The position numbers were made by a program, and so were the translations under genes. A stretch of DNA of 64,000 nt from Chthonomonas sp. (lineage in GTDB: Bacteria; Armatimonadota; Fimbriimonadia; Fimbriimonadales; Fimbriimonadaceae). The notes under the pieces were generated by a model, which saw only the letters and a program-made list of their open reading frames with translations, had not been told where the DNA came from and made no database searches. Shown here one piece after another: positions 8,666 through 44,039 of the stretch (positions within the stretch are counted from its first letter, which is position 1; each line of letters opens with the position of its first letter). The stretch covers positions 1-64,000 of the forward strand of contig JAEURP010000007.1 in the NCBI GenBank assembly GCA_016788585.1, in the 5' to 3' direction.

Positions 8666-8685
8666 CTCAGATTGAACGTTCTTAG

Positions 8686-9216: not shown

Positions 9217-9236
9217 GTCACGACATAATTGTTTTC

Positions 9237-11305: not shown

Positions 11306-11366
11306 GATCGTATTTTGGACGGCTCACAAGATTGCCGGGAAACATGGAATAGAAAATCTGTAAGGA

Positions 11367-12023: not shown

Positions 12024-12181
12024 CAGTTTGCGGGTGGCGGGTTCCGTGTTGGACATGCCGGACTAGTCCTACTGGTCTGACCGTTTTGGTCCGGGGCCTG
12101 AAACCCGAGACCCGAATCCCGGCTAAACTTAAAGCCCGGGGCGCTTTCAGTGTCGCAGGCGGCGCGGGTTCCAGCACCGCT

Positions 12182-14395
12182 ATGGCCTCGCCGTATGAGA
12201 TTTCGCACACTTGGGAAGAGCCCGATGGGCTCACCGAGTTGCTGAATGACATTCGGCAACAGAGGCCAGATGCGGACGTCCGAAAGATTCGCTACGCGTA
12301 TTTCATCGCCGAAGACGCCCATTCTGGCCAAACTCGAGCGACCGGCGACCCCTATATCACGCACCCGCTCGCCGTCACGAATATCCTTGCCCATCTGCGG
12401 ATGGACGACGACACGATCTGTGCGGCCCTGCTTCATGACACGGTCGAGGATTGCAAGGGCATCACGACCGAAAAGATTCGGGAGGACTTTGGCGAAGAGG
12501 TAGCGATGCTGGTCGAAGGAGTGACAAAGCTCAGTTTTAAGACCCTCGACGAGAACAATGAGCGACAGAAGAAGGCGGCTGAAACGGACCGTGCGGCCGA
12601 GAACCTCCGCAAAATGCTGCTTGCGATGGCCAAAGATGTTCGCGTGATGGTCATCAAACTCGCCGACCGGCTGCACAACATGCAGACCTTGGAAGGCCAC
12701 AAAGACCCGGCCAAACGAATCCGAATCAGCCAAGAAACACTTGATATTTTCGCCCCATTGGCGGCGCGGCTAGGCATTTGGCAAGTCAAGTGGCAATTGG
12801 AGGATCTCGCTTTTAAGTTCCTGCATCCCAAGGAATACAAGGAGATTCAGGACATGGTCGTCAAGACGAGGACCGACCGGGAAGCCGAGCTCAACGAGGC
12901 GATTCACATCGTCAAAGATGAACTGATCAAACGTGGGGTCAAGGTTGTGGAAGTTCAGGGGCGGCCCAAGCACCTCTTCAGCATCTTCAACAAGATTGTC
13001 ATTCACGGTTTCCGATTTGAGGACATTCTCGATCTCATCGCGATGCGCATTGTCGTGGCATCGAAAGACGACTGCTACGTTGCCCTAGGTGTTGTGAATG
13101 GGCTTTGGGTGCCAATGCAGGAGCACTTCGCCGATTACATCGCGCGGCCCAAGCCCAATGGTTATCAGTCATTGCATATCAAGGTGATTGGACCCCGCGG
13201 CGAGCCGCTGGAGATTCAGATTCGCACGAAAGAGATGCACGACGTCGCCGAGATGGGTGTCGCGGCCCACTACGCCTACAAAGAGGGCGCCAATGCGGTT
13301 GATCAGCGCTTTGCGAACCTGAGGCAGCAACTTTTCGATTGGTCTAGCGACTACCGGACGTCGTCGGACTTCTTGCGCAATTTGAGTACAGACCTGTTCA
13401 GCGAGCAGGTCTTTGTCTTTACTCCCAAGGGTGAGGTCCTAGATCTGCCCAAGAATTCCACGCCAGTAGACTTTGCTTTTCGGGTGCATACAAACCTTGG
13501 TTTGCGCCTCGTTGGCGCGAAAGTCGGGGGGCAGATCGTGCCCCTCGATCATCAACTCAAGAACGGTGACATTGTGGAGGTCATTACGCGAAGTAATGCC
13601 CAGCCAAGTCTTGATTGGCTTCAATTCACTGCCAGTCCCAGCGCAAAAAGCAAACTCAGGAGCTACTTTAGGACCCGTCGGCGCGATGAGAATGTGGCCC
13701 AGGGTAAGGAACTCGTTGAGCGTGAGCTAAAGAGCCGAAAGCTCGACCCTAAGCTCTATTTGGGCGAGAAACTCACGGGTGTCATCGGGCAGATCAAGGA
13801 CTGCCGGACATCAGAAGACATTTTTGCCAAAGTGGGCGAAGGGTTAGTGAGCGCGATTAGCGTGGTCGATAAGATGCGACCGCCCACCCAAACAAAGGGT
13901 GAGCGAGGCCCGAACAAGGCCAGAGAGACCGGGGTGCTGAGCGTGGTTGGCGGGCTCGACTCGGTGAGCATGCGGCGTGCGAAGTGTTGCGATCCCATCC
14001 CAGGCGAGGATGTTGTGGGATACGTGACGCGGGGCCGCGGCATCATGATTCATCGTGCCGCCTGCACGAACGCCCTGGCTTATGAGCAATCTGACCCCGA
14101 GCGCCTGATTCCTATCGACTGGAAACCCGATGGTTCGGGCGTCTTCCGCGTAAACCTCAAGATCGTGACTCTGGAGCGGCAGGGCCTGCTTGCCGATGTT
14201 TCGAACATGATCGCCGAGGCGCGGGCAAACATTGTCGGCATGAAGGTGCGTCCATTGCCGAATACAACCTTTGAGTGGGATATTTCGGTCGAAGTGCGGG
14301 ATATTGAGCATCTGAACTTCGTGCTGAACAAGGTTTCTAACCTTAGTGATGTGTTCAGCATCTTGCGGGTCCACGGAAGGACGGGCTCGCGTTGA
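12182..14395 (+). CDS. relA: Bifunctional (p)ppGpp synthetase/hydrolase RelA/SpoT
   Basis: HD domain (HD...LHDTVED), RelA_SpoT synthetase region, TGS and C-terminal ACT domain; ATG at 12182 preferred. Confidence 0.9.
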   Translation: MASPYEISHTWEEPDGLTELLNDIRQQRPDADVRKIRYAYFIAEDAHSGQTRATGDPYITHPLAVTNILAHLRMDDDTICAALLHDTVEDCKGITTEKIREDFGEEVAMLVEGVTKLSFKTLDENNERQKKAAETDRAAENLRKMLLAMAKDVRVMVIKLADRLHNMQTLEGHKDPAKRIRISQETLDIFAPLAARLGIWQVKWQLEDLAFKFLHPKEYKEIQDMVVKTRTDREAELNEAIHIVKDELIKRGVKVVEVQGRPKHLFSIFNKIVIHGFRFEDILDLIAMRIVVASKDDCYVALGVVNGLWVPMQEHFADYIARPKPNGYQSLHIKVIGPRGEPLEIQIRTKEMHDVAEMGVAAHYAYKEGANAVDQRFANLRQQLFDWSSDYRTSSDFLRNLSTDLFSEQVFVFTPKGEVLDLPKNSTPVDFAFRVHTNLGLRLVGAKVGGQIVPLDHQLKNGDIVEVITRSNAQPSLDWLQFTASPSAKSKLRSYFRTRRRDENVAQGKELVERELKSRKLDPKLYLGEKLTGVIGQIKDCRTSEDIFAKVGEGLVSAISVVDKMRPPTQTKGERGPNKARETGVLSVVGGLDSVSMRRAKCCDPIPGEDVVGYVTRGRGIMIHRAACTNALAYEQSDPERLIPIDWKPDGSGVFRVNLKIVTLERQGLLADVSNMIAEARANIVGMKVRPLPNTTFEWDISVEVRDIEHLNFVLNKVSNLSDVFSILRVHGRTGSR

Positions 14396-19144: not shown

Positions 19145-19882
19145 GTGGCTCTCCCCCTCTTGCTTGGCTTCATGCTGCTCCCGCCGCCGAAGCCGGTGGA
19201 CTCGCTCGATATTCCGGATCGGTATCGAGGGCGGATCGTGTTGGTGCAGCCCAAGCAATTCAGTGAAAAGGTGGTAGCGCTCACGTTCGATGACGGCCCC
19301 GACCCCAAGGTCACAGCACAGATTTTGAAGACGCTGAAAAAGAATGACGCCAAAGCGACCTTTTTCATCTTGGGGCAGAACGCGCACTATTATCCAGAGA
19401 CGGTGAAGCTCATCGCTGCCCAAGGCCACGCGATCGGCCAGCATAGCTGGTCGCACGCCGCCAAAGCCGATGCCAAGAAGGCTGAAGTCGAGTTCACAAA
19501 GACGAACTCGTTGCTCAAGAACCTGATCGGCTACCGACCGGTGATGTATCGCCCGCCCTATGGCATCACCAAGAACGGCATGACGGCTCTTGCTCTAAAA
19601 GAGAACGACGCGGTCATTCTCTGGACGAGAATCGCCAACGACACAATGACCAAGAGCCCGGCTAAGGTAAACCTCAATGTCGGTACACCCGGTCCCGGTG
19701 AAATCGTGCTGATGCACGATGGGTATGGCAAGACGTGGACGGCAGAGGCCTTACCGCGCATCATTAAGCGCCTGAAGAACAAGGGCTACAAGTTTGTGAC
19801 CGTTCCAGAAATGCTTCGCAAGTGGGATCAGTACCTAAACGTTCACCCAGATCGCGGGGCCACCAAGCCCTGGCACCTATGA
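19145..19882 (+). CDS. Polysaccharide deacetylase (NodB homology domain), secreted
   Basis: Signal peptide then VALTFDDGP...HS.SH motifs of CE4 deacetylases. Confidence 0.8.
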   Translation: MALPLLLGFMLLPPPKPVDSLDIPDRYRGRIVLVQPKQFSEKVVALTFDDGPDPKVTAQILKTLKKNDAKATFFILGQNAHYYPETVKLIAAQGHAIGQHSWSHAAKADAKKAEVEFTKTNSLLKNLIGYRPVMYRPPYGITKNGMTALALKENDAVILWTRIANDTMTKSPAKVNLNVGTPGPGEIVLMHDGYGKTWTAEALPRIIKRLKNKGYKFVTVPEMLRKWDQYLNVHPDRGATKPWHL

Positions 19883-20863
19883 CCGGCTCGGGGACACGGT
19901 CTGCAGAGTCTGGCAGCTTTCGATTGCGGCTCTGGCAATAGCGACGGCCCGCAGGCCATCCAGTGCCGTCACCGGAGCTTCGCGCGCACCCGTGCAAGTC
20001 TCGACAAACGCTCGTCCTTGGTTGTAATAGGGGTCGTCCACTGGCAGCATCGGTGACTCCAATTGTGTGTTCTCTTCCGTATGTCTTCGTACGGTCGGCG
20101 TCTTGCGAGAGTCGAATTCGATCATGCCCTTGTCGCCGCAGACTTCGATCGTCGTCCTGAATCCACTGGGGTCGAGCCACGTCGCCTCGACGTGAGCAAT
20201 CGCGCCCGATTCAAACTCTAAGGTCGTTAACGCATAGTCGCCCGGCTTGCCTTCGAGCGCTCCCGGGTTGGTCAGGCGAACCGATCGTGACGTGACGAAT
20301 CGCACCTCACCCAATGTCCAGCGCAACCAATCGAAATCATGCACTGCCAGGTCGAGCAGTACGCCGCCAGAGCGAGATGCATCTTGAAACCACCCAGCGC
20401 TACCCACTGGAGCCTTACCACCGCGGCGCGTGCGCGCGGTAACCGGGTTGCCAACCGCTCCTCCAGCAACCAACTCGTGGGCCTTCTTGAAGTCGGGGAA
20501 GTACCGAACAACTTGCGCGGGCATCAGAACCACACCTGCCTTCTCGGCTGCCTCCAGCATTTCGGCGCACTGGGCCACGTTCAGCGCCATCGGCTTCTCG
20601 CACAGCACGTGCCGGCCTGCCGCAATTGCCTTTAGGGTAACGGAATGGTGCGCATCCGTCGGTAAGCAAACATCCACGGCGTCTGCCCAGTTCAAGAGTT
20701 CGTCATAGGAAGTCGCAGGAGATAGGCCATGCGTCGAAGCAAAAGCCTCGGCGCGAGCGGGATCAAGTTCAAAGAACTTGAGTTCGACGTCGGGCATGTT
20801 CTTCCAATGCCGGGTGTGCACATTGCCCATCCCGCCCGCGCCGACAACCCCGATCCGTAACAT
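19877..20863 (-). CDS. Gfo/Idh/MocA family NAD(P)-dependent oxidoreductase
   Basis: N-terminal [13 protein letters not shown] Rossmann motif and family-typical length/organisation. Confidence 0.8.
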   Translation of the reverse strand: MLRIGVVGAGGMGNVHTRHWKNMPDVELKFFELDPARAEAFASTHGLSPATSYDELLNWADAVDVCLPTDAHHSVTLKAIAAGRHVLCEKPMALNVAQCAEMLEAAEKAGVVLMPAQVVRYFPDFKKAHELVAGGAVGNPVTARTRRGGKAPVGSAGWFQDASRSGGVLLDLAVHDFDWLRWTLGEVRFVTSRSVRLTNPGALEGKPGDYALTTLEFESGAIAHVEATWLDPSGFRTTIEVCGDKGMIEFDSRKTPTVRRHTEENTQLESPMLPVDDPYYNQGRAFVETCTGAREAPVTALDGLRAVAIARAAIESCQTLQTVSPSRS

Positions 20864-22209
20864 CAGTCCGAAAGTGTACTAGGTTGCTCAGTCTGCCGCG
20901 CTGCTACCAATCCCATGGCTAAACCCGCGATCGCGGCGACGGCTGAAGCGATCAATATTCCGAGTTTGGCGGGCCCAAGCAATGTCCCGTCCTTAAAGGC
21001 AAGCATCGCGATGAACATGGACATCGTAAACCCAATTCCCGCGAGCAATCCAGCCGAACAAAGCCAAAGCCATGAGACGCCAGCGGGAAGCCGGCTCAAG
21101 CCGAGTTTCACCGTCAGCAAACTGGCGCCAATGATTCCGACGGGCTTTCCCGCGACCAATGCAAGCGCAATCCCAAACATGACCGATTGGCTCTCTGCAC
21201 CTGCCCCGTTCGTATTGATCACCACACCGGCATTGGCGAGGGCGAACAGCGGCATGATGACGTAGGCCATCCAAGGGTGAATCGCCATCTGCGCTCTAAC
21301 CACCGGCGGCAGGAGCTCGCGTTGAGCCACTCGCAACTGCTTCAAGCGCGAGGCCATGCGGCTCTCATCGTCGGTGTGGTCCGAGTCGAAGAGTCGCTTA
21401 GTGGCGCGAACGACGATATCCATTGGATTCTCGCGCAGTTGCATCGATCGCACGGGGGTGATCAGGCCGAGCGTAACGCCTGCTAACGTAGGATGGACAC
21501 CTGCCCAATACAAGCCAGACCATGTGACCAAGCCCGGAATCACATAAGCCAACGCTGCCCCTGTCCCGATGCGCTGCAATCCAAGAACCAACAAAATTCC
21601 GAGTCCTGCCACCAAGAACCCGATGGCATTCAGACCCGACGAGTAGAAGAGCGCGATCACCAGCACGGCGATGATGTCGTCGATGATCGCGAGCGCGAGC
21701 AAAAAGACCCGCGCATTCGATGGGACTCGCTTACCCAAAAGAGCTAGAATCCCAACCGCAAAGGCGATATCCGTCGCCGTTGGAATCGCCCAGCCCGCCC
21801 GCTTGGCAGGATCAGCATTCATGGCAACGTAAATCAAGGCCGGAACAGCAACGCCACCCACCGCTGCCGCAAGAGGCAAGATGGCTTGCTTGGCGTCGCT
21901 CAACGCCCCTTCATGGATTTCGCGCCGAATCTCCATGCCGACGACTAGGAAGAAGATGGTCATCAACCCATCGTTGATCCAGAAGTGAAGGGACCGGTTG
22001 AACTCAAATGTCCCGACCTGAATGCCAATCGGCATATGCCAAAAGTCGTGATACGAGCCAGACCAAGGGGAGTTGGCCCAAAACAAAGCCGCGATTGCCG
22101 CGACCAGAAGGACCACGCCGCTAGCCGCCTCCACATGCAGGAAGCGCTCTAAGGTTCCAAAGGCGCGCTCGGCAAGGCGTTGGGCTCGGGGCAGATTCGT
22201 CTCGGGCAT
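20863..22209 (-). CDS. nhaA: Na+/H+ antiporter NhaA
   Basis: 448 aa polytopic membrane protein with NhaA-typical ALAIIDDI...conserved Asp pair and 12-TM layout. Confidence 0.85.
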
Positions 22210-22305
22210 AGGATTCCTCGCGCGGCGGCCCGACCAACGCTATCCTGCCCGCCAAGGGCGGACACCCAAACTCTAACTTACCTCTTTTTTGGTCAGCTCC
22301 AATGG

Positions 22306-22332
22306 TTGACATATGATACACATGTCTACTAT
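22306..22332 (+). promoter_or_regulatory. Sigma-70-like promoter candidate for the phage head module (TTGACA-15-TACTAT)
   Basis: Direct reading; spacer slightly short (15 nt). Confidence 0.3.
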
Positions 22333-22344
22333 TGCTATGTTCGC

Positions 22345-23163
22345 ATGACAATGACCCAAAACATTCTTAATCGCCGCGCGGCTGCTGCTGGCCCAGGCTA
22401 TCTCGGCGCGCGGAGCCATCTCGATGACCTTCGTCGCCAGAATCTCGTCCAAGAGTTCCGCGACGCCGGCCAAGATCCGCCCGACTATCTTCAACAAGCC
22501 CACGACTGGATCGAGAGGGAAGCCAAGCTCTTCGAAGCCGGCGACTTTCCCGACAAAGGCGTGAGCATCACCCAAGAAGACCTGAAGGAAATTGAATCCG
22601 AGTTCGATCTGCCGGTCCCGGTGCTGATCGAGCACGCTCAGAACCCTCTCGAACTCGGCTACCTTACTGCGGTTCGGGCCGAAGGCAACGAACTCTTCGG
22701 AACGGTGGCACTGACACCCGAGGCCGACGCCCTCATCCGTCGTTGCGGCGCAAAGTCGCTTTCCCTCGGTCTAACACCCGACCTCAAAGCGATTCGCGAG
22801 GTCAGCCTCGTGCAAAACCCGCGCATCAGCGACGCCCAACTCTTCCGCGCCGGACACCTCCTTCCCTCAATCAATGCCGAGGCGCACACCGAGAAGATGG
22901 TCCGCGAGGGCCGCTTGCTCCCGAGCCAGGCTCCCTTCGCCAAAGCGCTCCTGGAGTGCCCGAAATCGGTCGAGTTCGAGGGCGCGATGAAGCCGGTTCA
23001 GCAACTCATCATCGAGTTCCTCAATCGCATGCCGTGCTTCAAGCTCTACGGCGCGGTCGCTCCCGCCAGCATCGTCAACAGCACCCTCACCAACGAGGAG
23101 CTCGACTTCTATCAACGCTACTTCCCGGGCCTCAAGCCGGAAGACATTCTCCAACACAGATAA
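22345..23163 (+). CDS. Phage prohead protease (HK97/S78-like; Mu gpI-like) with C-terminal scaffold-like extension
   Basis: DLPVPVLIEHAQNPLELGYLTAVRAEGNELFGTVALT matches the vpvl.nHd...iG......ed.GL motif of HK97-family prohead proteases; helical C-terminal half; ATG at 22345 avoids overlap with nhaA. Confidence 0.6.
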   Translation: MTMTQNILNRRAAAAGPGYLGARSHLDDLRRQNLVQEFRDAGQDPPDYLQQAHDWIEREAKLFEAGDFPDKGVSITQEDLKEIESEFDLPVPVLIEHAQNPLELGYLTAVRAEGNELFGTVALTPEADALIRRCGAKSLSLGLTPDLKAIREVSLVQNPRISDAQLFRAGHLLPSINAEAHTEKMVREGRLLPSQAPFAKALLECPKSVEFEGAMKPVQQLIIEFLNRMPCFKLYGAVAPASIVNSTLTNEELDFYQRYFPGLKPEDILQHR

Positions 23164-23167
23164 GAAA

Positions 23168-23608
23168 ATGCCAGCCCTATCAAAACCCTTTGAATCCCTC
23201 GAAAGGCCCGGTCTCGTGGTCTCCTACAAGCTCTCCAATGTCGCCGTTTGGAAGGGCGCGCTACTCGGCGTCAATAGCAGCGGCTTCGCCGTGCCCATGG
23301 CGCATGGCACGGCGAACCTCCGGTTCATCGGCGTCGCTAACGAGTCGGTGAACAATGCCTCGGGCAGCGCCGGCGATAAGTCGGTGAATGTCACGAAAGC
23401 GGGTTCGTTCGTCTTCACACCGAACTCCGGCTATACCCCGGCCCAAGGCGATCTCGGCGCGGAAGTTTACGCTGTGAACGATAACCAAGTCCAAATCGTG
23501 ACGACCGGCCTGACCTCCGCCTACAAGATCGGCACGGTCAGCGCCCTCGAAACGACCTCCACTGGCAGCGCGGGCGTCCGCGTTCGCATCGACCGCTACT
23601 CCCTCTAA
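23168..23608 (+). CDS. Phage head-associated protein (decoration or scaffold candidate), function unknown
   Basis: 146-aa Gly/Ser/Thr/Val-rich beta-type protein encoded between protease and major capsid gene, same strand, 4-nt spacing. Confidence 0.4.
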   Translation: MPALSKPFESLERPGLVVSYKLSNVAVWKGALLGVNSSGFAVPMAHGTANLRFIGVANESVNNASGSAGDKSVNVTKAGSFVFTPNSGYTPAQGDLGAEVYAVNDNQVQIVTTGLTSAYKIGTVSALETTSTGSAGVRVRIDRYSL

Positions 23609-23614
23609 ACCACT

Positions 23615-24529
23615 ATGCCACTTACCAGAAGCGATATTCCTGAGCTTATGCTTGCCGGTCTCAAGACCGAATTCGACCTTGCCTACCGCGCCCAAGTCTC
23701 GAACAGCGCGGTCGAGCAGATCGCGACCGTCATCTCGACCACGCTGCCCGTGCAGAAGTACGGCTGGCTCGGCTTCTCGCCGCCGATGCGCGAGTTCATT
23801 GACGAACGCCAGCCGCTCGGCCTTTCCTCGCAATCCACCTCGATCGAGGACAAGGTTTTCGAGTCCACCCTCGCCGTTCAGCGCAAGGCGATCGAGGACG
23901 ACCAGTTCGACCTCATCCGCCTGCGCATCCAAGAGATGGCGTCGCGCGTGGCCCTGCACCGTCACCAGATGGTTGTCGAGTCGCTCGCCAATGGCAATGC
24001 CGGCACGATTTACGACGGCAATGCCTACTTCGCCGAGCGCACGGTGGGCGCGAACACCTTCTCGAACCTCTCGACCGATGCGCTCGATGCAACAGCAATC
24101 CGTGATGCGGTGAGTGCAATGATGAGCGTGCGCGACGAGACCAACTCGCCGATGGGCATCACGCCCGACACGCTGCTCGTCGGCCCCAGCCTCATGTGGA
24201 CGGCGATGGAGCTCGTGCAGAGCCCGGTCGTGGTCTCCGGCGGCGCCGCGCCGAGCTATCTCAATGTCTTCCAAGGCAAGCTCAAGGTCATCGTCTCGCC
24301 CTTCCTCACCGGCGACCACGCTGACAAGTGGTTTGTGCTCGACACCAGCCGCCCCGTCCGCCCGATCATCATGCAACAGCGCAGCGACGTTCCGGTGGAG
24401 TTCACCGCCCTCGAATCAGGCTCGGGTTCGGAGTCCGCTTTCATGCGCGATCTCTACATGTACGGCGTGCGCGGGCGATACAACGTCGGCTACGGCCTAT
24501 GGCAACTCGCCTACGGCGGTGGTTTCTGA
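23615..24529 (+). CDS. Major capsid protein, Mu gpT-like (HK97 fold)
   Basis: 304 aa; overall resemblance to Mu-like prophage major head subunit gpT (PF10124) by eye, including the characteristic C-terminal ...YGLWQ...GGGF end; follows the prohead protease. Confidence 0.65.
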   Translation: MPLTRSDIPELMLAGLKTEFDLAYRAQVSNSAVEQIATVISTTLPVQKYGWLGFSPPMREFIDERQPLGLSSQSTSIEDKVFESTLAVQRKAIEDDQFDLIRLRIQEMASRVALHRHQMVVESLANGNAGTIYDGNAYFAERTVGANTFSNLSTDALDATAIRDAVSAMMSVRDETNSPMGITPDTLLVGPSLMWTAMELVQSPVVVSGGAAPSYLNVFQGKLKVIVSPFLTGDHADKWFVLDTSRPVRPIIMQQRSDVPVEFTALESGSGSESAFMRDLYMYGVRGRYNVGYGLWQLAYGGGF

Positions 24530-24786
24530 TGAATGTGGACCTCACCGTTCTGCTGGGCGGGGTGGTCACGGGAATCTTGGCATTGGCTCGCATCACGTTG
24601 AACCAGCACAAGGCTCTTGTGGATCGCTTCGTCTCGTTCGTTGAGGCTTCCGTGAGGCGGCAAGAAACTTCGGCCGAGCAGGTCGCGCAAGCGTTGCGCG
24701 ACCTGGCCGAGGGCACTCGGGAGAATACGATGACCTTGCGCCGAATGGGCGAACAGCTCGGCGTCCACTTTCGCAAGGGGGCGTAA
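24529..24786 (+). CDS. Small single-TM protein in capsid module
   Basis: 85 aa, ATG overlaps capsid-gene stop (TGATG); TM helix LTVLLGGVVTGILALARI followed by charged helix. Confidence 0.45.
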   Translation: MNVDLTVLLGGVVTGILALARITLNQHKALVDRFVSFVEASVRRQETSAEQVAQALRDLAEGTRENTMTLRRMGEQLGVHFRKGA

Positions 24787-25188
24787 ATGGCGCTATCAGT
24801 CCTGGTCGCCGATATTCAGGCGCGCGCCAACGTCCACGACTCAGCTTACGAGACTGAGATTGATGAGGTTGTGGCGCGCCTCCTGCCCGTCGTCTCCTAC
24901 GCGCTTCGTCCGGAGGCTCTTGCCTCCGGCGACGCCGGGCTGCAGGCCGTGCTTGATGATGGAGCCGCCGACGTGATCGCGGGCACGTTCCTGGCTCAAC
25001 ATTACCGCCGCCCGGAGCTGCTGCTGTCGGTCATCGTCGGCGACCTCCAACTCTTCCCCCGCCGATTTGAAAGTGTTGCCGACCCAAGCGGTTTGATCGC
25101 CCAAGGTTGGCTCAAGCTAAAGCCCTGGCTCAAGCCCGACTCCACAGCCCCTGTCCTCGCCGCGAGCGGCAAAGGAGTTCCGTCATGA
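24787..25188 (+). CDS. Phage head-tail connector (gp6-like adaptor) candidate
   Basis: 133 aa; N-terminal LVADIQARANVHDSAYETEIDEVVARLLPVV resembles gp6-like connector N-termini; translationally coupled (TAAATG). Confidence 0.35.
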   Translation: MALSVLVADIQARANVHDSAYETEIDEVVARLLPVVSYALRPEALASGDAGLQAVLDDGAADVIAGTFLAQHYRRPELLLSVIVGDLQLFPRRFESVADPSGLIAQGWLKLKPWLKPDSTAPVLAASGKGVPS

Positions 25189-25493
25189 GTGTCCTCATCG
25201 AGCGTCTGTCCGACTCGCTGGAAGTCTTCGGCGAGCCGATTTTGATCGAAGACGAACCTGCCCAAGCCTTCGTCCGCGTCTACTCGGCCGCCGAAGCGCG
25301 CCTCTATCTTGAAGAAGCCGTCATCACCGCCGCCTCCCGCCCCATCCGCGGCTTCTTCGTCTTAGCTGATACCGTCGCGGCCATCGGCAATACGATCGAA
25401 TGGCTTGGCGAAACCTACGAAATCGCCTTCATCCGCCGCTACCGCATCAGCGGCGCGGACGTGGGACTGGGCCTGATCGCAGTCCTACCGTAG
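25185..25493 (+). CDS. Small phage head-completion-like protein
   Basis: 102 aa, ATGA overlap with upstream gene; last gene of the module. Confidence 0.35.
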   Translation: MSVLIERLSDSLEVFGEPILIEDEPAQAFVRVYSAAEARLYLEEAVITAASRPIRGFFVLADTVAAIGNTIEWLGETYEIAFIRRYRISGADVGLGLIAVLP

Positions 25494-25626
25494 CTCCCTC
25501 CTCTCCCCTTGCGGGAGAGGAAGTTCGAGGAGTTCCGCGCGATAGCAAGGGAAGCTCGAACAGGAGAGGGGTTTCTCGCTTTGACCTCACCCCTAACCCC
25601 TCTCCTCCGCCACCCGCTACCCGCGA
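25494..25626. terminator. Two GC-rich hairpins between convergent capsid module and gspE-like gene (bidirectional termination region)
   Basis: cctctcccc-ttgc-gggagagg and aggagagggg...cccctctcct inverted repeats read directly. Confidence 0.45.
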
Positions 25627-26892
25627 TCACGCCATCGCTTGCGTATGCACCGCCCGAATCACCTCATCCGGAACCGTCCACCCGTTCAGAACCTTGTACT
25701 TGCCGTCCTCCAGCATGGTTCTAAAGCCTTGCTTTTTGGCCGCTTCGTCAATCGCGACATAGGAACCGCCCGAGGCGATCGCATGCTTGAAGTCGAGCGT
25801 GCCCATGAGGAGCTCGAAAACACCAACACGGCCCTTGAGACCAGTGCCGCGGCACTCGGCGCAGCCTTTGCCCTTCGCGCACTTGGCGCGCTCTAAATCG
25901 GCGGGCGTGATGCGAAGCATCTTAATCTCGTCTTCGGTGAGCTTGTAGGGCTCAAGGCACTTCTGACAGTTCAAGCGGATGAGCCGCTGAGCCAGAATCG
26001 CGACGGTGACGCCGGCGATGAGATACGGCTCCGCGCCCATGTCCACCATACGCCCGATGGTCTCCATCGAGTTATTGGTGTGGAGCGTGCTGAGGACCAA
26101 GTGGCCGGTAAGCGCGGCTTGTATGCCAATCGCGAGCGACTCGGGGTCGCGCATTTCGCCGACCATCATCACGTCGGGGTCTTGGCGAAGGAACGACCGC
26201 ATGACGCGAGGGAAGGGAAGCTTCTCGGTCACCTGCACCTGACCGACGTCCTTGTCGAATTCGTATTCGATTGGGTCTTCGACCGTCACAATGTTGCGCG
26301 TCTTGCTGTCCAGCGTAAGCAGGGAAGCGTAGAGCGTCGAGGTCTTGCCGCTACCCGTCGGGCCGGTGACCAAAACCAGGCCATAGGGAACCGAGATCGC
26401 CTTCTGCCAATTGCGCAAGAGATCCTCGGGCATGCCGAGCTTGAGAAGGTCGACCTTCATTGCGCCCGGGTCGAGAATACGCATGACGATCTTCTCGCCG
26501 TTCAGACAGGGCACACACGAGCACCGGGCCGAGAGCCGCCGCCCCATGAACTCCATGTCGATACGGCCGTCCTGCGTCTCGCGATTCTCGTCAATCCGCA
26601 TGCCAGCCGCCAGCTTAAGCCGCGCGACGACGTTCATCGCATGCTCGGGAGGCAACTGACCGCCGTCAATCAGGATGCCGTCTTGGCGGAAACGAATCTT
26701 GAGCTGATCACGCTCTGGCTGAAGGTGAATATCGCTCGTGCCCATTTCGAGGGCTTGGATGAAGATATTGTCAACGATACCGACCGCCAACGACATCTCA
26801 TCGCCGCCCATATCGCGGGCGCTACCGGCTTCTCGAAGAACGAGCCGGAACTTCTTCCCGGCTCCATAGTTAAAGCTGTCGTTGTACGTCAT
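25627..26892 (-). CDS. GspE/PilB-family secretion ATPase (lacks N1 domain; has C-terminal CxxC...CxxC zinc motif)
   Basis: Walker A GPTGSGKTST, Asp/His boxes, tetracysteine CQKC...CAEC; 421 aa. Confidence 0.85.
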   Translation of the reverse strand: MTYNDSFNYGAGKKFRLVLREAGSARDMGGDEMSLAVGIVDNIFIQALEMGTSDIHLQPERDQLKIRFRQDGILIDGGQLPPEHAMNVVARLKLAAGMRIDENRETQDGRIDMEFMGRRLSARCSCVPCLNGEKIVMRILDPGAMKVDLLKLGMPEDLLRNWQKAISVPYGLVLVTGPTGSGKTSTLYASLLTLDSKTRNIVTVEDPIEYEFDKDVGQVQVTEKLPFPRVMRSFLRQDPDVMMVGEMRDPESLAIGIQAALTGHLVLSTLHTNNSMETIGRMVDMGAEPYLIAGVTVAILAQRLIRLNCQKCLEPYKLTEDEIKMLRITPADLERAKCAKGKGCAECRGTGLKGRVGVFELLMGTLDFKHAIASGGSYVAIDEAAKKQGFRTMLEDGKYKVLNGWTVPDEVIRAVHTQAMA

Positions 26893-27248
26893 GGCTTAAC
26901 GAAAAGGTACGCCGCGACGCACACGAGGAATCCTGCGAAGATCTTCCTCATGAGCGCAGGGTCGAGACCGAGCGCCAGTTTACTACCGGCATACGCTCCA
27001 CCGAACAGCCCCAGCGCGATCCATGCGCCCTTGAGGAGGTCAATCTGCTCCTTCTCCCAATAGTTCTTGACCGCGAGGAGCCCAACGGGCGCCAGCAACA
27101 CGATCAAACTCGTGCCTTGCGCCTTCTGCTGGGTCATCTGAAAAGCAAAAATCAGGAGCGGCACAATGATGATGCCGCCCCCGATTCCAAAGAGTCCGCT
27201 GCTTACGCCCGCCACAAGGCCGATCAGCACACAGAGAAAAATCTCCAT
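26889..27248 (-). CDS. Half-size TauE/SafE (TSUP, DUF81) membrane protein
   Basis: 119 aa, 4 TM; GLFGIGGGIIIVPLL motif; 4-nt overlap with gspE-like start. Confidence 0.6.
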   Translation of the reverse strand: MEIFLCVLIGLVAGVSSGLFGIGGGIIIVPLLIFAFQMTQQKAQGTSLIVLLAPVGLLAVKNYWEKEQIDLLKGAWIALGLFGGAYAGSKLALGLDPALMRKIFAGFLVCVAAYLFVKP

Positions 27249-27271
27249 GTGCCGAGCGTACCTAAGAGCCC

Positions 27272-28867
27272 TTACTCGTCAATAGCGCCGAAGTTGGCGA
27301 TGATGATGTCGATATCGCCAGCATCGACTTCACCGCTAACATCTACATCGGAGTTTGGATTGCCATTACCGACGGGCCAAATCGCGCCGAAGTCGGCGAT
27401 GACTTGATCGATGTCGGCGGCGTCCACTTCGCCAGAGGTGTCGACGTCCCCATTAACAAGTGCCACTGCACCGATATTGATATCGGTCGGAGTCGCGCTA
27501 CCAGGAACGGTTACGTTGACGGTCTTCTTCAAGAAAGAAGCCCCGTCGAACACAATCGTGTATTGGTTCGTCGCCCCAGCCGGAGGTACGTTTGGCAAGA
27601 TCACGCGAACCGACGACGAGGTCGAAGCTGTGCCAACCAAGAGGCCGCCATGAGTGATTGGCATTACGCCAGAGAAGACTTGATAGGTGATCGCTCTCTG
27701 ATAGGCCATCGCACCCACATCTTGAAGGTTGACCGTCCCCACAAAGTCCTGTCCCTGCACAGCGATGCCCAAAGCAATATTGCTAATACGGGATGGGCTG
27801 ACAGCTCCTTGAGTTCCGACCGGTCCAGAGACCGCAGTCGACGTTCCCGGCGCCGTGGATCGCCACAGGTTGTGGGTGCTCGAGCCTACGTGAGGGTTAG
27901 CATAGACGGCCCCAATTCCATTCAACTGTGCTGCCGTCGTGGCCGTGGTGGCTCCCCCATTGTTGTACTGCTGCCCCATCCAGAATGTCTGATCGGTTGG
28001 GACCGTTGGAAACGCCGTGCTGACACCGGTTCGCCAAACAAAGCTACCCGCGGTATGGGATGAAACATAGGTGTGTCCCGTGAGCCATGTCCCTGGGTCG
28101 AAAACTCCCGTCGGACCAGGGGTCCCAGTTCCCTGCAAATGGAAGCGGATGAGGCTCTGGAAGGTGGCAGCGGCACCTGTTCGGGTCGCCCAGTTGACGG
28201 CTGTAATCTGCTGACCAGCGTAGCCTGGCATCGGAGTGACGTCATCGTAAATCGCGGTCGTATAGGCCGGCACATCCGCATCCTGCGCGCCGCCAAGTGC
28301 GGTCAGCGTTGTCTGCGTACCCGTCGCGTAGCACTGATAGATATAGAACCTTCCAGTTTGGACCGGTGACCCAACTGGGATCCCAGAGAGTTGGAAATCG
28401 ATGCCGGTCGTCGTGGCTTCTTCAGGATAAACGCCGCCGACTAGGGCCACGTCGTTCACGTACTCAAGGGTCCAGGTGGAGCCATTGAGAATAAAGCACC
28501 CTTTGAGGGTCGAGGCTGCTGTTCGAGTTCCTGGTGTTACCGGGCCATAGCTGTTGGTGAGACCAAACTCGTGGTATAGGGTCGGGTAATTGGCGTGCTT
28601 CAGTCGGACTTTCTTGGCAGAGGCAAGAGTGCCTGACCCATCGACGGTACCAGCGTGGACTGTTACAACATCGCCCAACACATAGCTGCTCCGTGCGGCC
28701 TGGGTAACGGAAGTGTTCCCGCTGAAGCCTGCCGGGCCCGAAAAGAAGCCAGCGGTCATGCGCCAGCCGTCGTTGGTTGCATTTGCAAGGCCAGGGATCG
28801 CGGTCGCAACGAGGCCTGCGACCAATGGCAGAGATCGATATCGAATAATCATAAGAGTCCGAGGCAT
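27272..28867 (-). CDS. Secreted beta-rich protein with C-terminal dockerin-type tandem Ca-binding repeat (paralogue A)
   Basis: Signal peptide; C-terminus VNGDVDTSGEVDAADIDQVIADFG...DVDVSGEVDAGDIDIIIANFGAIDE = two dockerin type-I-like DxDxSGxVDxxDID loops. Confidence 0.65.
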   Translation of the reverse strand: MPRTLMIIRYRSLPLVAGLVATAIPGLANATNDGWRMTAGFFSGPAGFSGNTSVTQAARSSYVLGDVVTVHAGTVDGSGTLASAKKVRLKHANYPTLYHEFGLTNSYGPVTPGTRTAASTLKGCFILNGSTWTLEYVNDVALVGGVYPEEATTTGIDFQLSGIPVGSPVQTGRFYIYQCYATGTQTTLTALGGAQDADVPAYTTAIYDDVTPMPGYAGQQITAVNWATRTGAAATFQSLIRFHLQGTGTPGPTGVFDPGTWLTGHTYVSSHTAGSFVWRTGVSTAFPTVPTDQTFWMGQQYNNGGATTATTAAQLNGIGAVYANPHVGSSTHNLWRSTAPGTSTAVSGPVGTQGAVSPSRISNIALGIAVQGQDFVGTVNLQDVGAMAYQRAITYQVFSGVMPITHGGLLVGTASTSSSVRVILPNVPPAGATNQYTIVFDGASFLKKTVNVTVPGSATPTDINIGAVALVNGDVDTSGEVDAADIDQVIADFGAIWPVGNGNPNSDVDVSGEVDAGDIDIIIANFGAIDE

Positions 28868-28928: not shown

Positions 28929-30044
28929 TTACTCGTCTACGGCACCGAAATTGGCAATCACCAGATCAATGTCCGCCGCGTCCACTTCGCCACTGAGGTC
29001 GAGATCGGCGAATTCGTTGCCTACGCCAGGAAAGACCTGCCCAAACGAGGCGATGACTTCATCGATGTCGGCGGCATCCACTTCTCCTGAACCGTCGACA
29101 TCGCCATTGGTTAGCGCGACAGTTCCAATATCAATCGACTCTGGCATCACACTAGGCGGCACCGGTACCTGCACCAAGATAGTCTTGTGCAGGAAGGGCT
29201 GCCCGCCAATTCGGATAGAAATAGGGTTTGTAGTACCCGTTGGCAATACGGCTGGAACGGTAAGCCAAAACGCATCTGTCGCCGCCAAGTTGCTCATGCT
29301 AATCGCTTCCGAGGCGAACGTGACGCTTCCCGAAATCGCCGTGACTTGGATGGTACGCCCATGGGCCATGGGCGTGATCACATCGTTCAGCGTGATACGG
29401 CCATGAAAGTCCTGCCCAGGGATACCCAACGACAGAGCGAGATTCCCGTATTCGTAGGCTCCGGGGGGATTGTTGCTGTAGATGAGATCTGAGGCTGCGC
29501 TACTGCGAAAGACGTTCGCATCCGAGGTGCCGCGAGCAACCGTGCCCGGCATGATCCCCATCTCATTGAGCTGGGATACCGTTGCCATGCCATTTCCGTT
29601 GGAATCATTGTCGAGGGCAATGCCAACATAGAACTTCGAGGCAGGTACAGACAAGTCCCCACCGGCCGTGCTGAAGATGGCGTTTTCTGTCGAGTAACCG
29701 GCCATCCGAATAGCATCCCCGGTGAAGGCGGTGGTTCCCAGGTAGGTGCCCAGGGTAGAGCCTGGCCCGTTGGCCTCCCAGAACCGAATCCTCGGGCGAA
29801 AGCTCACATCGGCAAGATTGTAATTGTAAAACGTGGAGGCGATTGCTGTGACTTCGCGACCTGCATAAAGGCTCATCGCCGTAACATCGTCGGCGAGCGT
29901 TTTGGTGATTGGAGTGGTCCCGGATTGGGCAAACGAGGGGTACAAGCAGTCGTCGGCCATGGGCTCAGACTGATAGACCCAATAGGGAGACTGGGCCAGC
30001 CCAATCGCTGGCAACACACACAAGCTCAGTAGAAGCAGTCGCAT
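28929..30044 (-). CDS. Secreted protein with C-terminal dockerin-type repeat (paralogue B)
   Basis: Signal peptide MRLLLLSLCVLPAIGLAQ (ATG 30044; alternative TTG 30086); C-terminal TNGDVDGSGEVDAADIDEVIASFG...DLDLSGEVDAADIDLVIANFGAVDE. Confidence 0.65.
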   Translation of the reverse strand: MRLLLLSLCVLPAIGLAQSPYWVYQSEPMADDCLYPSFAQSGTTPITKTLADDVTAMSLYAGREVTAIASTFYNYNLADVSFRPRIRFWEANGPGSTLGTYLGTTAFTGDAIRMAGYSTENAIFSTAGGDLSVPASKFYVGIALDNDSNGNGMATVSQLNEMGIMPGTVARGTSDANVFRSSAASDLIYSNNPPGAYEYGNLALSLGIPGQDFHGRITLNDVITPMAHGRTIQVTAISGSVTFASEAISMSNLAATDAFWLTVPAVLPTGTTNPISIRIGGQPFLHKTILVQVPVPPSVMPESIDIGTVALTNGDVDGSGEVDAADIDEVIASFGQVFPGVGNEFADLDLSGEVDAADIDLVIANFGAVDE

Positions 30045-30091
30045 CTGAAAAAGGTTCAACGAAATCCTTTGCACCGATCGTGCCAAAGATT

Positions 30092-30117
30092 GGGGGCGTC
30101 ACAGTAATGACGCCCCC
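30092..30117 (-). terminator. Rho-independent terminator candidate after paralogue C (GGGGGCGTCA-loop-TGACGCCCCC, T-stretch on minus strand)
   Basis: Perfect 10-bp stem read directly; followed by AATCTTT on the coding strand. Confidence 0.5.
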
Positions 30118-30174
30118 AAGATCAATTAAGTTCAAGCTGGGGCTAGTCTCAGGACTGAAACCCCAGTTCAAACA

Positions 30175-31344
30175 TCAAACGTCGTCGACAGCGCCGAAGT
30201 TGGCAATAACGATGTCGATATCTGCAGCATCCACTTCACCATTGATGTCGCAGTCGGAATTAGCAGCTGCATCGGTTTCCGCAGAGATCACGGCACCGAA
30301 GTCAGCGATCACCTGATCGATGTCAGCCGCGTCGACTTCACCCGAGCCATCGCAGTCGCCATTTGTCAACGCAACATCGGGAACCACGATTGCAACGGGA
30401 GCATCGTTCGGAGCTGCTGGAATCGTCACGTCGAACTTTCGCTTCAAGAACTGACCGCCGTCCATGGTGATGGTGACGGGGTTTGAGGCGCCAATAGGGA
30501 GGCGAGCTGGGCATCGTATGGCCAATGCACCTACGTTTGGACCTGCAGCAGCATAGGTGAAGATGTAGTAACCGGCAAGAATAACATTGCCGGCAGCAAC
30601 CGTAATGTTAATGGTCTTGGCATAGGCGGGCGAAACTACGTCGTTCATCGTCATGTTGAAGTTGTAGTTTTGCGACATCAGACCAAAGTCCATATCCAAC
30701 GTGTCGCCAGCTGGAAGGAGGCTCTGTACGCCATTTCCTGCTACGATCGCTTGGAACCAGCTACCTGGGGTGTTGGTGGTGTAGATCGCATCGGTGCTCG
30801 GCGCGAAGAACCCCGAGTTAGCAACCGCCTTTCCTAATGCCATTAGGTTGAGGTCTGCATCAGTGGCACCGGTCGTGTTGGCATTGTTGTCATACACCCA
30901 ACCCGCCCAGAACTTTCCGCTCGCTGGAACCAACACGTTGTTGGCGACCGTTGGAGCAAATGCATAGTAGTTGTTGCCGGGAACAAAGGAAATCGCCGCA
31001 AACGAGAAGCCGGGGCCTAAGGTTGCAGGATCGTTAATGCCAGTTGGTCCAACAGTTGTTCCGTCAGCTTGGTGCATGCGGTATCGAGGGCGGCAGCTAA
31101 TCGCCGCGCCACCAGTGTTTACCGTGTTCCAAGCGATATAGCGAATTGGCTGACCTGCCCACATAGGATCGATATTGATGTCGTCGGTGACGTACTTCGT
31201 GATCGGGCCCGCACCAGCAACGGCGCCGCCATTAATGACCGATCCGTTGGTCGCCCCTACAGCGGAAACGTAAAAGACGCCCTGAGCGTGCGCAAGGCTC
31301 CCAATAAGGAGTGCGCCCAAAGCGGTTAGAGTGAGTTTGTTCAT
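30175..31344 (-). CDS. Secreted protein with C-terminal dockerin-type repeat (paralogue C)
   Basis: Signal peptide MNKLTLTALGALLIGSLAHAQ with GAGGA RBS; C-terminal TNGDCDGSGEVDAADIDQVIADFG...DCDINGEVDAADIDIVIANFGAVDDV. Confidence 0.65.
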   Translation of the reverse strand: MNKLTLTALGALLIGSLAHAQGVFYVSAVGATNGSVINGGAVAGAGPITKYVTDDINIDPMWAGQPIRYIAWNTVNTGGAAISCRPRYRMHQADGTTVGPTGINDPATLGPGFSFAAISFVPGNNYYAFAPTVANNVLVPASGKFWAGWVYDNNANTTGATDADLNLMALGKAVANSGFFAPSTDAIYTTNTPGSWFQAIVAGNGVQSLLPAGDTLDMDFGLMSQNYNFNMTMNDVVSPAYAKTINITVAAGNVILAGYYIFTYAAAGPNVGALAIRCPARLPIGASNPVTITMDGGQFLKRKFDVTIPAAPNDAPVAIVVPDVALTNGDCDGSGEVDAADIDQVIADFGAVISAETDAAANSDCDINGEVDAADIDIVIANFGAVDDV

Positions 31345-31483
31345 GGATATCCTCAATTTCTGACAGACTTCGGCGCGCCAGATAGGCCACCGATAGTGAC
31401 CTCTACTATAACTCAAGTTCATCCTAAGTGTATGACAATTCTATGAGGAATTGAGAAGTCCCGGCCAAATACCAGCGAAAACC

Positions 31484-35362: not shown

Positions 35363-36139
35363 TCAATCACATAGTGAATACCAGGTGCCCGTCCAAGCAT
35401 TCGGGTCATTCGAAGCCTCACCAGAGCGCCGGCCTTCCGGGTTTACGCGCTGCTCATCAAACTTTCCCGCGCCGGTCGTCGCCCTCGCGCTGCCGTCGGC
35501 GAAGATCACGGTCCCTCCAATTGAGCTCCAGCGGCGGAAATAGTCGCCTGGAGCAGGGCAGTCGTAGCCGTAACGATCGCATGCGGTTGCTACCACCTGG
35601 CGCGAAAAGAAGGGCATCATCTCTGTGCGCATCATTCGCGTGTTGCTGGGTTCCTCCATGCTTCCCAAGGTCACTGCGCGGTTAAAATCGAGAACGTAGC
35701 CATTCTGAACCGAGTAATTTTGGGCCACTGTAAAGACGCAGCTGGTGAACCGGTAAGAAGTGCCATACGCTTCGAAGTACGACTTCTTGCCGCGAAGCCA
35801 AGCAGGAAGGGTCGACCGGTTTAGGTAAGGGCCCCCCGCGTCGGTTGGACTGCCGAAGATCTGCTTGTTCTTGGCGTAGGGAAGCACCCATACCTCGACA
35901 CCGCGGTGCAATGGCCCCGGAGGATTGATCTCGTCATACGCCGAGAAGATCGGCATGCCGTCGTCATTGTCGCTCGTGTACATCATCGTCGCGATGCCAA
36001 TTTGCCGGCCATTGCTGAGGCAAGCCGTTCGCTTGGCCGCTTCTCTGGCTTGCGCGAAGACAGGGAAGAGAATGGCCGCGAGAATCGCGATGATCGCGAT
36101 CACGACCAGAAGCTCGATAAGGGTGAATGCTCGTTTCAT
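35363..36139 (-). CDS. DUF1559 (H-X9-DG) protein with prepilin-type N-terminal cleavage/methylation domain
   Basis: [29 protein letters not shown]-terminus; C-terminal [12 protein letters not shown] (H-X9-DG-type motif). Confidence 0.8.
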
Positions 36140-36329
36140 GGTGATTCAAAGTGAAAGCCACCCACGCTTTACAGCGGAGGTGGCTTGAGATTCTCACCAC
36201 TTCCACAGTGCCTACGCCGGTATGAGCCGGATCAGGTCCTAGGGTCCGCAGATTTCTCTCTGCATCTCAGCCGCCTTCGCGACACCCCTTGCGGATTGCT
36301 TTCAACACTAAGAGTACCTTGCAGAAAGG

Positions 36330-42806: not shown

Positions 42807-44039
42807 ATGTCTAAGTTTTGGGTTTCGTGCCTCTGTGTTTGTGCCACGCTCTCGGCCAGCGCGATCGGGCCGCGCGTTGCCATCGTTGCCGCTGCCACCA
42901 ACACGGCTAACGAACAAACGAACACTCGCTTCACCGATCCACGCGATATGCTCGTAAATGACGGTCGTTTCAGTAGCGTGACGATTATCAGCACCACACA
43001 GTACGGTGGTGGCTTTACGCCGACCCTTATCGACCTCCTTCAATATGACGCGATCCTCCACTGGACCAATGACTCGAACGAAGACAGCGTCGGCCTGGGC
43101 AATAGCTTTGCTGACTATGTGGACGCAGGAGGCGGCGTAGTCGTGTCGGTTTTTGCTAACACTTCGACCAATGTCATGCGTTACCTGCGCGGTCGATGGC
43201 AGACCGGAAATTACGAGATCATTCCCGCCGCAGGCACCCATACGGAAGGTCCGGTCGCCGGTACCCCGGGCACTGAGGGGTACATCCATATGGCAACGCC
43301 AATTGTTCCGGCTCACCCCATTTTCCAAGGAGTTGGCGACGTGCGGCTGTGGTGGAAGACGACGACTCAGGGTCTCCGCTGGGGCGCCCATCGACCCACA
43401 AATACCAACGTCCACCTTTGGGGGCAGAAAATCGCGCTGTGGGACGACGGTAAGACCGCGGTTGCCCTGCACAACGACCACCCCAACCGCGTGGATTTGG
43501 GCATTCACCCGGTGTCCGACGCCGTTGCATTAGCCTACTATGATCGCACAAGCGACGCTGGAAAGCTGATCGCGAACTCGCTTCTGTATTCGGCAGGAAT
43601 CGCGATTGCCGTTGATTTGAGCCTCGGCGATACGGTGAGCCCGATGGCGGCATCCCGCAGCATTGACTACACAGTAAAGCAAGGAGATATTGTTCGGAAG
43701 ATTGGGACGGTGCAATTACCTACGGTGCCAGAGGCTCCCGCAAGGATCTACCTGCTGCGATCACTGACCGGCCCAATCACGATCGAGTTCGATGGCGCCT
43801 CCTATCTTCGGAAGAAAGTGCACGCAGTTCATGCGGGCAGTGACCTGAATCTCGGACCCGTTGTATTGACGAACGGTGACCCTGACAATAGCGGTGAAGT
43901 CGATGCCGCTGATATTGACGCTGTCATTGCCAACTTCGGATCAACGAATGACGGTAGCACCGACGTGGACGCGTCTGGGGAAGTTGATGCCGCCGATATC
44001 GATATCGTGATTTCCAACTTTGGCAGCGTCAACGAATAA
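42807..44039 (+). CDS. Secreted ThuA/class-I-glutamine-amidotransferase-like protein with C-terminal dockerin-type repeat (paralogue D)
   Basis: N-terminal signal peptide; DAILHWTND...GGGVVVSVF ThuA-like; C-terminal TNGDPDNSGEVDAADIDAVIANFG...DVDASGEVDAADIDIVISNFGSVNE. Confidence 0.6.
   Translation: MSKFWVSCLCVCATLSASAIGPRVAIVAAATNTANEQTNTRFTDPRDMLVNDGRFSSVTIISTTQYGGGFTPTLIDLLQYDAILHWTNDSNEDSVGLGNSFADYVDAGGGVVVSVFANTSTNVMRYLRGRWQTGNYEIIPAAGTHTEGPVAGTPGTEGYIHMATPIVPAHPIFQGVGDVRLWWKTTTQGLRWGAHRPTNTNVHLWGQKIALWDDGKTAVALHNDHPNRVDLGIHPVSDAVALAYYDRTSDAGKLIANSLLYSAGIAIAVDLSLGDTVSPMAASRSIDYTVKQGDIVRKIGTVQLPTVPEAPARIYLLRSLTGPITIEFDGASYLRKKVHAVHAGSDLNLGPVVLTNGDPDNSGEVDAADIDAVIANFGSTNDGSTDVDASGEVDAADIDIVISNFGSVNE

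Follow-up and report, generated by a model that had tools for sequence, protein, structure and literature searches.

A PilB/GspE-type ATPase lacking the N1 region and its gene neighbourhood in Fimbriimonadales

Does a lone secretion-type ATPase, encoded next to a secreted dockerin-like protein and a small membrane protein, belong to a dedicated export unit with its neighbours? The question is raised by a stretch of 64,000 nucleotides of Chthonomonas sp. (Armatimonadota; Fimbriimonadaceae; GenBank assembly GCA_016788585.1, contig JAEURP010000007.1, positions 1 to 64,000), hereafter called the window, in which three such genes occupy positions 25627 to 28867 of the minus strand. An earlier note, made from the sequence alone, described them as a possible operon and proposed that the ATPase might serve the export of its neighbours. 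Our analysis points to a different explanation, which we consider likely: the ATPase is the pilus or pseudopilus assembly ATPase of the lineage, and its neighbours, a half-size protein of the TSUP/TauE family (TauE-half) and the dockerin-like proteins, are incidental and lineage-specific. The cluster and its immediate surroundings contain the following features.

25535..25626, minus: structured region directly 3' of the ATPase stop codon (RNA folding)
25627..26892, minus: GspE/PilB-type assembly ATPase, 421 aa, with the N2 and C-terminal ATPase domains only
26889..27248, minus: half-size TSUP/TauE membrane protein (TauE-half), 119 aa, one four-helix repeat unit
27272..28867, minus: secreted dockerin-like paralogue A (531 aa), bearing a Sec-type signal peptide and, at its C-terminus, a double Ca-loop module
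28929..30086, minus: dockerin-like paralogue B, start uncertain
30087..30174, minus: two strong terminator-like hairpins 3' of paralogue C (RNA folding)
30175..31422, minus: dockerin-like paralogue C

The ATPase and its neighbourhood in related genomes

The ATPase matched the Pfam family T2SSE (PF00437) over residues 38-413 with an E-value of 6e-108 and 361 bits (cut-off 24.9), and no other Pfam family scored above its curated cut-off. On the NCBIfam models, it aligned with positions 110-484 of 486 in GspE (TIGR02533; 421 bits, cut-off 630) and positions 181-561 of 564 in PilB (TIGR02538; 413 bits, cut-off 676). Because these alignments begin only at position 110 of GspE and position 181 of PilB, the N1 region, which is the GspL-binding part of the ATPase of type II secretion systems (T2SSs), is absent, as the earlier note had claimed. 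With partial matches below both cut-offs and no N1/GSPII domain, the protein does not qualify as an equivalog of either GspE or PilB. Its translation, aligned to the GspE structure 4pht, contains a Walker A motif (GPTGSGKT), an Asp box (VTVEDPIEYEF), a Walker B motif (DPDVMMVGEMRD) and a His box (TGHLVLSTLHTN), and the tetracysteine Zn motif CxxC...CxxC is present as CQKC...CAEC. The nearest solved structures were GspE from V. vulnificus (PDB ID 4pht), PilB from Geobacter (5tsg) and PilF from Thermus (5oiu), with E-values of ~1e-87 to 1e-90 over N2 and the C-terminal domain; PilT was much further away in the same PDB search (E ~1e-33).

The protein resembles these PilB and GspE proteins in having full N2 and C-terminal domains, all catalytic boxes and the tetracysteine motif, but differs from them in lacking N1/GSPII, with only a conserved stub of ~36 aa, and in being encoded by a usually solitary gene outside any gsp or pil operon. 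Residues 1-36 are kept in the window and at the related loci L024 and L070 as (K/R)(K/R)FRL(I/V)(I/L)RE..(R/T)(D/E)MGG.(D/E)MSLAVGIVDNI, and this basic N-terminal stub of the N1-less ATPases might be a short docking motif that replaces N1. ComGA, the competence pseudopilus ATPase of Firmicutes, is likewise short and devoid of an N-terminal GSPII domain, and the window's ATPase matched positions 2-266 of 267 in the NCBIfam ComGA model. However, the score of 212 bits is below the cut-off of 300, the Zn-finger C-terminal region is of the PilB/GspE kind, and there is no comG-type operon.

A wider search covered 1.84 billion cluster representatives, among which the whole Armatimonadota ATPase group is one representative at 50% clustering. 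The next relatives were at most 47% identical and mostly of PilB length (500-600 aa), their match beginning around residue 160-200; identity between such PilB-length proteins and the window's ATPase was 40-47%, and only a handful among the best 150 relatives were ~415-440 aa long. Judging from its sequence, the ATPase appears to be an assembly ATPase of the PilB kind whose N1 was lost, and its clade is sharply isolated. By bit score, the closest relatives outside Armatimonadota (P0362-P0375) were proteins of ~1000 aa with two T2SSE matches each, which look like tandem double PilB/GspE-type ATPases.

Orthologues of the ATPase were found in 80 GTDB species of Fimbriimonadales, and their loci, with 6 kb on either side, were searched with the window's proteins. 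The orthologues are 421-424 aa long and 65-94% identical. TauE-half lay directly upstream of the ATPase gene in six of the 80 loci (L013-L017 and L024), two loci having too little upstream sequence to judge; in the remaining 72 species, no TauE gene was found within 6 kb of an equally conserved ATPase. Dockerin-like paralogues were upstream in four loci, only those with at least 90% ATPase identity. At L008 (81% ATPase identity), the order was tryptophanyl-tRNA synthetase, TauE-half and ATPase, with no dockerin-like proteins, and about 30 loci had a divergent EamA transporter gene upstream; no conserved downstream gene was seen. Fimbriimonas ginsengisoli probably has its ATPase orthologue beside EamA in the same way. 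In GCA_019638775.1, the ATPase (L005, contig 2) and TauE-half (L011, contig 1) were unlinked, and the TauE-half genes of L010-L012 were located in unrelated contexts. In the reverse test, which covered 80 metagenome loci with genes for relatives of TauE-half (38-55% identity), no locus had a GspE-like gene within 4 kb. Gene order across related genomes is thus not conserved (6/80 for TauE-half, 4/80 for the dockerin-like proteins and 0/80 in the reverse test), and this co-occurrence analysis, which had been suggested as a check, does not support a dedicated module.

The ATPase tree and identity matrix placed the TauE-linked loci in one clade (the window, L008 and L013-L017) and the separate L024, whose sisters, 84-86% identical, have no TauE-half. 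The gene order at L024 is MocA, TauE-half and ATPase, and that at L071 is MocA, EamA and ATPase. In L070 and L077, the order is MocA, a 275-aa TauE, EamA, a 181-aa gene and the ATPase, with TauE on the same strand and both MocA and EamA on the opposite one. TauE and the ATPase therefore appear to be old neighbours that an opposite-strand gene kept apart, an arrangement that is not an operon, and loss of EamA would make them contiguous. The window still holds a marker of this older neighbourhood, 6 kb from the ATPase gene:

19877..20863, minus: GFO/IDH/MocA oxidoreductase, a 54% identical orthologue of the gene flanking TauE in L024, L070 and L077

We also considered two independent captures of TauE-half as a sign of selection, but this argument was weakened by the older MocA-TauE-EamA-ATPase order, from which simple deletions would give adjacency.

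Partners of the ATPase and competing explanations

In the window, neither Pfam on the long open reading frames (ORFs) nor tblastn with E. coli Gsp and Hof proteins found GspF/PilC, a secretin, PilM/N/O or a prepilin peptidase, in agreement with the claim that the ATPase is unaccompanied by GspF/PilC here. No canonical T2SS or type IV pilus (T4P) cluster is present in the window. In ~90 loci, tblastn with the E. coli queries, which have limited sensitivity, gave no match to GspF, HofC, GspO, GspG, GspL or GspM near the ATPase, and none to GspF or HofC within 6 kb of it at any locus. Parts of such a machine were found elsewhere in relatives. Locus L011 of GCA_019638775.1, which is separate from the ATPase locus, carries at 7592-12360 a pilM/N gene, pilO, a 225-aa gene and a gene for an 840-aa secretin. 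A pilM-pilN-pilO-T2SSC-like-secretin operon lies at 7431-13023 in L089 and 7456-13206 in L090 (minus), and in these two of the 80 relatives it is convergent with the ATPase gene, with ~200 nt between the gene ends. PilB, C, D, Q and M, six PilT, 79 PulG-like pseudopilins and PulD/E/F/J/K/O have been reported for Fimbriimonas ginsengisoli (PMC4072686), and the genome of Chthonomonas calidirosea has been described as 'disorganized', with pathway genes outside operons (PMC4959169). Because relatives hold the machine at other loci and the C. calidirosea genome is non-operonic, a solitary ATPase gene is to be expected in Armatimonadota. The earlier note had named a canonical T2SS or T4P locus elsewhere that accounts for the ATPase as an observation that would overturn its proposal, and T4P or T2SS loci of this kind do exist in relatives (GCA_019638775.1 and F. 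ginsengisoli).

According to the explanation that we favour, the ATPase would be the Fimbriimonadaceae-wide orthologue of a PilB/GspE-type ATPase that shed N1, and it most likely powers a T4P- or T2SS-like machine. PilM, N and O, the secretin, PilC, PilD and many prepilin-like proteins would be encoded at other loci, with related genes scattered in Armatimonadota; for the window's own genome, we infer these partners. The upstream position of TauE-half would be a leftover of the MocA-TauE-EamA-ATPase neighbourhood after the intervening EamA was lost, and the dockerin-like paralogues may represent a genus-level expansion of Sec-exported surface proteins that were inserted upstream. For Armatimonadota, these results describe a clade of N1-less PilB/GspE proteins that is sharply separated, strongly conserved and normally encoded alone, and gene neighbourhood is therefore unfit for assigning partners in the phylum.

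The layout of the cluster is nevertheless that of an operon, with genes on the same strand, short gaps and no internal terminator. The stop codon of paralogue A is 23 nt from the ATG of TauE-half, whose stop codon overlaps the ATPase start by 4 nt (ATGA). When folding energies were compared with those of shuffled sequences, the gap 3' of paralogue C (-48.3 kcal/mol, z = -6.85) and that 3' of the ATPase gene (-46.6 kcal/mol, z = -3.28) stood out, whereas the A-TauE (z = 0.1) and B-A (z = 0.3) junctions folded no better than shuffled sequence. The G+C-rich stem of the second hairpin after paralogue C comprises 13 pairs, and AAUCUUUGG comes next. The structured region at 25535..25626, placed between the ATPase gene and convergent prophage-remnant genes, is likely the end of the transcription unit. 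A promoter/terminator consensus scan yielded 11 terminator-like sites in the unit against 6.0 ± 2.8 expected, a chance-level number of intragenic sites, and no intergenic one between paralogue A, TauE-half and the ATPase; an Rfam scan of the window found no RNA element in 25.6-31.5 kb. Co-transcription fits these data because the genes share a strand, the 23-nt gap and the 4-nt overlap leave no hairpin between them, and hairpins occur at both ends. The layout put forward for the three-gene operon (the gap, the overlap, the absence of a terminator between the genes and the strong one after paralogue C) was therefore confirmed in detail by sequence and folding, and co-transcription of A, TauE-half and the ATPase, possibly from B onward, is plausible. 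As for the uncertain start of paralogue B, the TTG at 30086 falls inside the terminator hairpin after paralogue C and the ATG at 30044 is a more plausible start; a public gene call for a sequence identical to paralogue B has 376 aa.

Several observations weigh against the favoured explanation. The E. coli GspF, GspO and pilin queries may miss divergent homologues, the pilMNO-secretin genes next to the ATPase in L089 and L090 are convergent and not operonic with it, and PilC, PilD and PilMNOPQ have been shown for relatives only. In addition, the ATGA overlap suggests that TauE-half and the ATPase are translationally coupled in the lineage. All eight loci with the pair space it tightly (-4 to +60 nt) and are divided between two separate ATPase clades; a third clade (L070, L077) has a TauE gene no more than 3 kb from the ATPase. 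A true two-gene module, in which the membrane protein docks or regulates the N1-less ATPase, would account for the overlap, for the TauE gene in L070 and L077, and for adjacency that recurs in two separate clades and in three flanking contexts (dockerin, tryptophanyl-tRNA synthetase and MocA). However, we consider such a module unlikely, given that the ATPase is equally conserved in the 72 of 80 species without TauE within 6 kb, that the two genes are on separate contigs in GCA_019638775.1, that the contexts of TauE-half in L010-L012 are unrelated and that a GspE-like gene is missing from all 80 of the more distant TauE-half loci. Moreover, the opposite-strand EamA between the two genes in L070 and L077 means that the ancestral state was not an operon, and the protein keeps all conserved motifs of TSUP transporters. 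Some Fimbriimonadaceae might have enlisted a single-repeat TSUP protein as a membrane partner that is translationally coupled to the N1-less ATPase and that either replaces the N1-GspL/PilM contact or links the assembly of a pilus or pseudopilus to the transport of a small molecule, but we regard this as decidedly improbable.

An equally doubtful proposal is that of a dedicated export unit, in which the ATPase drives the secretion or display of co-transcribed dockerin-like proteins. The genes are on the same strand, no hairpin intervenes between B or A and the ATPase, and, like T2SS substrates, the paralogues carry Sec signal peptides. However, the linkage is limited to the four closest species (at least 90% ATPase identity), a fourth paralogue is unlinked, the strong terminator sets paralogue C apart, and a tRNA synthetase takes the upstream position in L008. 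Furthermore, Pfam and tblastn with E. coli queries found no platform protein, secretin or pseudopilin in the unit. The suggested link between the ATPase and export of a dockerin cargo and a small membrane protein is thus not supported (4/80 and 6/80 loci, the tryptophanyl-tRNA synthetase in L008 and the unlinked fourth paralogue). The candidate new secretion module does not hold, and follow-up effort is saved. We also asked whether the ATPase could be part of the Mu-like prophage remnant nearby, perhaps as a secretion or packaging-type ATPase borne by the phage, since Mu-like head genes at 22180-24529 end ~1.1 kb from its stop codon, with two unannotated ORFs (24787-25493) in between. The phage genes lie on the other strand and converge on the ATPase gene, the fragment is common only to the closest relatives, and the ATPase has orthologues in 80 species without phage genes nearby; this distribution effectively refutes a prophage origin, to which we give almost no credence.

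TauE-half and the dockerin-like proteins

TauE-half matched the Pfam family TauE (PF01925) with 78.3 bits (cut-off 32.6) over profile positions 2-110 of 237. We found 842 homologues, mostly of 114-150 aa; the GIGGG and QGTSL motifs are invariant, and there are 22 invariant positions among 29 diverse members. The AlphaFold2 model (pLDDT 93.7) has four transmembrane helices, the second of which is broken, and a PDB fold search with this model gave no significant match. A truncated pseudogene was ruled out by the length kept in hundreds of homologues, the invariant motifs and the confident model, and four-helix half TSUP proteins therefore constitute a large conserved family. TSUP proteins are 4+4 duplications with 7-9 transmembrane segments (PMC7176098), so that TauE-half, with four helices in the model, falls short of this number and represents a single repeat unit. 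It is similar to the TSUP/TauE-SafE permeases (TC 2.A.102) in its strong TauE match and glycine-rich TSUP motifs but holds only one of the two four-segment repeats. SWEET and SemiSWEET offer a conceptual parallel to TSUP and TauE-half, and by analogy with half-transporters such as SemiSWEETs, TauE-half probably homodimerises. Its role would be the transport of a small anion or solute, unrelated to secretion; both the dimerisation and the substrate are what we infer for this protein.

A full-length TauE of 275 aa is encoded at 3050-3877 of L070 and at about 2594-3340 of L077, where the window's clade has TauE-half. Both halves of this longer protein resemble TauE-half (~45% identity), and the difference in length reflects either the loss of one half or the duplication and fusion of a half.

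The scores of the dockerin-like proteins against Dockerin_1 (PF00404, cut-off 22.9) were 18.7 bits for paralogue A and 22.3 bits for paralogue C, both below the cut-off, and 29.3 bits for paralogue B, above it. Because A and C score under the cut-off, 'dockerin-like' is the safer label. Paralogue A, described as a dockerin-tagged protein, has the Sec signal and the double Ca-loop module, with a Dockerin_1 score just short of the cut-off. A further paralogue lies 14 kb away:

42807..44039, plus: fourth dockerin-like paralogue, unlinked to the ATPase gene

An alignment of all four paralogues revealed an invariant C-terminal duplication, NGDxDxSGEVDAADIDxVIAxFG, ending in FGA(V/I)D(E/D). Like type I dockerin modules, they carry two tandem segments of a Ca-loop and a helix at the C-terminus of Sec-exported proteins; unlike them, they have no identified cohesin partner or cellulosomal context, although cohesins were not searched for. 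The N-terminal domains of the paralogues matched no family in Pfam or NCBIfam.

A prepilin-like gene downstream of a riboswitch and other features of the window

The earlier note also mentioned a prepilin-like DUF1559 protein as possible cargo of the ATPase. Its gene follows a thiamine pyrophosphate (TPP) riboswitch:

35363..36139, minus: prepilin-type DUF1559-like protein with a prepilin leader
36191-36299, minus: TPP riboswitch, RF00059 (Rfam, 70 bits, cut-off 54.3)

The riboswitch lies 52 nt upstream of the gene, and a terminator-like hairpin is located between the TPP aptamer and the start codon. The orthologue group is conserved, with proteins of ~255 aa, and the gene is monocistronic. 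In all three diverged orthologues (58-64% identity), a TPP riboswitch occurs 62-69 nt upstream in unrelated gene contexts. The TPP riboswitches of relatives lie at 4569-4677 in L006 (a close relative), 2817-2932 in L175, 2829-2938 in L176 and 2832-2939 in L177, and the scores across the window and these relatives were 61-72 bits against the same cut-off. In its AlphaFold2 model, the DUF1559-like protein combines a pilin helix of 50 residues with a globular domain. A PDB fold search with this model matched only the N-terminal helix to known pilins and found nothing for the globular domain. Our literature search found no paper linking DUF1559 with riboswitches, and none of the titles and abstracts on TPP riboswitches and pilins dealt with a pilin-like gene under riboswitch control. 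The protein looks like a pilin-anchored one for the acquisition of thiamine or a thiamine precursor, and it may be a candidate substrate of the pilus or pseudopilus machinery powered by the ATPase. The many prepilin-like DUF1559 proteins of the lineage would need such an ATPase, and the TPP-riboswitch control of one of them provides a testable functional handle on the DUF1559 family.

The window is ordinary chromosome, with RelA/SpoT, GatB, NusA, IF-2, GroEL, RRF and UppS among the genes identified by Pfam, and a flagellin gene is divergent from paralogue C. Its other features are the following.

20863-22209: NhaA antiporter gene
22221-22267, minus: nhaA-I (Na+-responsive) riboswitch directly upstream of the NhaA gene, with the expected pairing
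22180-25500, plus: remnant (3 kb) of a Mu-like head module between NhaA and the ATPase, with a protease-like gene, a virion protein and the gpT major head protein
51652-52221, plus, and 52420-52956, plus: two small tandem PEP-CTERM proteins

In L006, a relative with 94% identity, a Mu portal gene is found several kb further, past a host gene. The PEP-CTERM proteins imply an exosortase-type sorting system in the organism. Finally, L008 carries a cyclic di-AMP (ydaO) riboswitch at 2125-2258 (minus) that is unrelated to the ATPase cluster.

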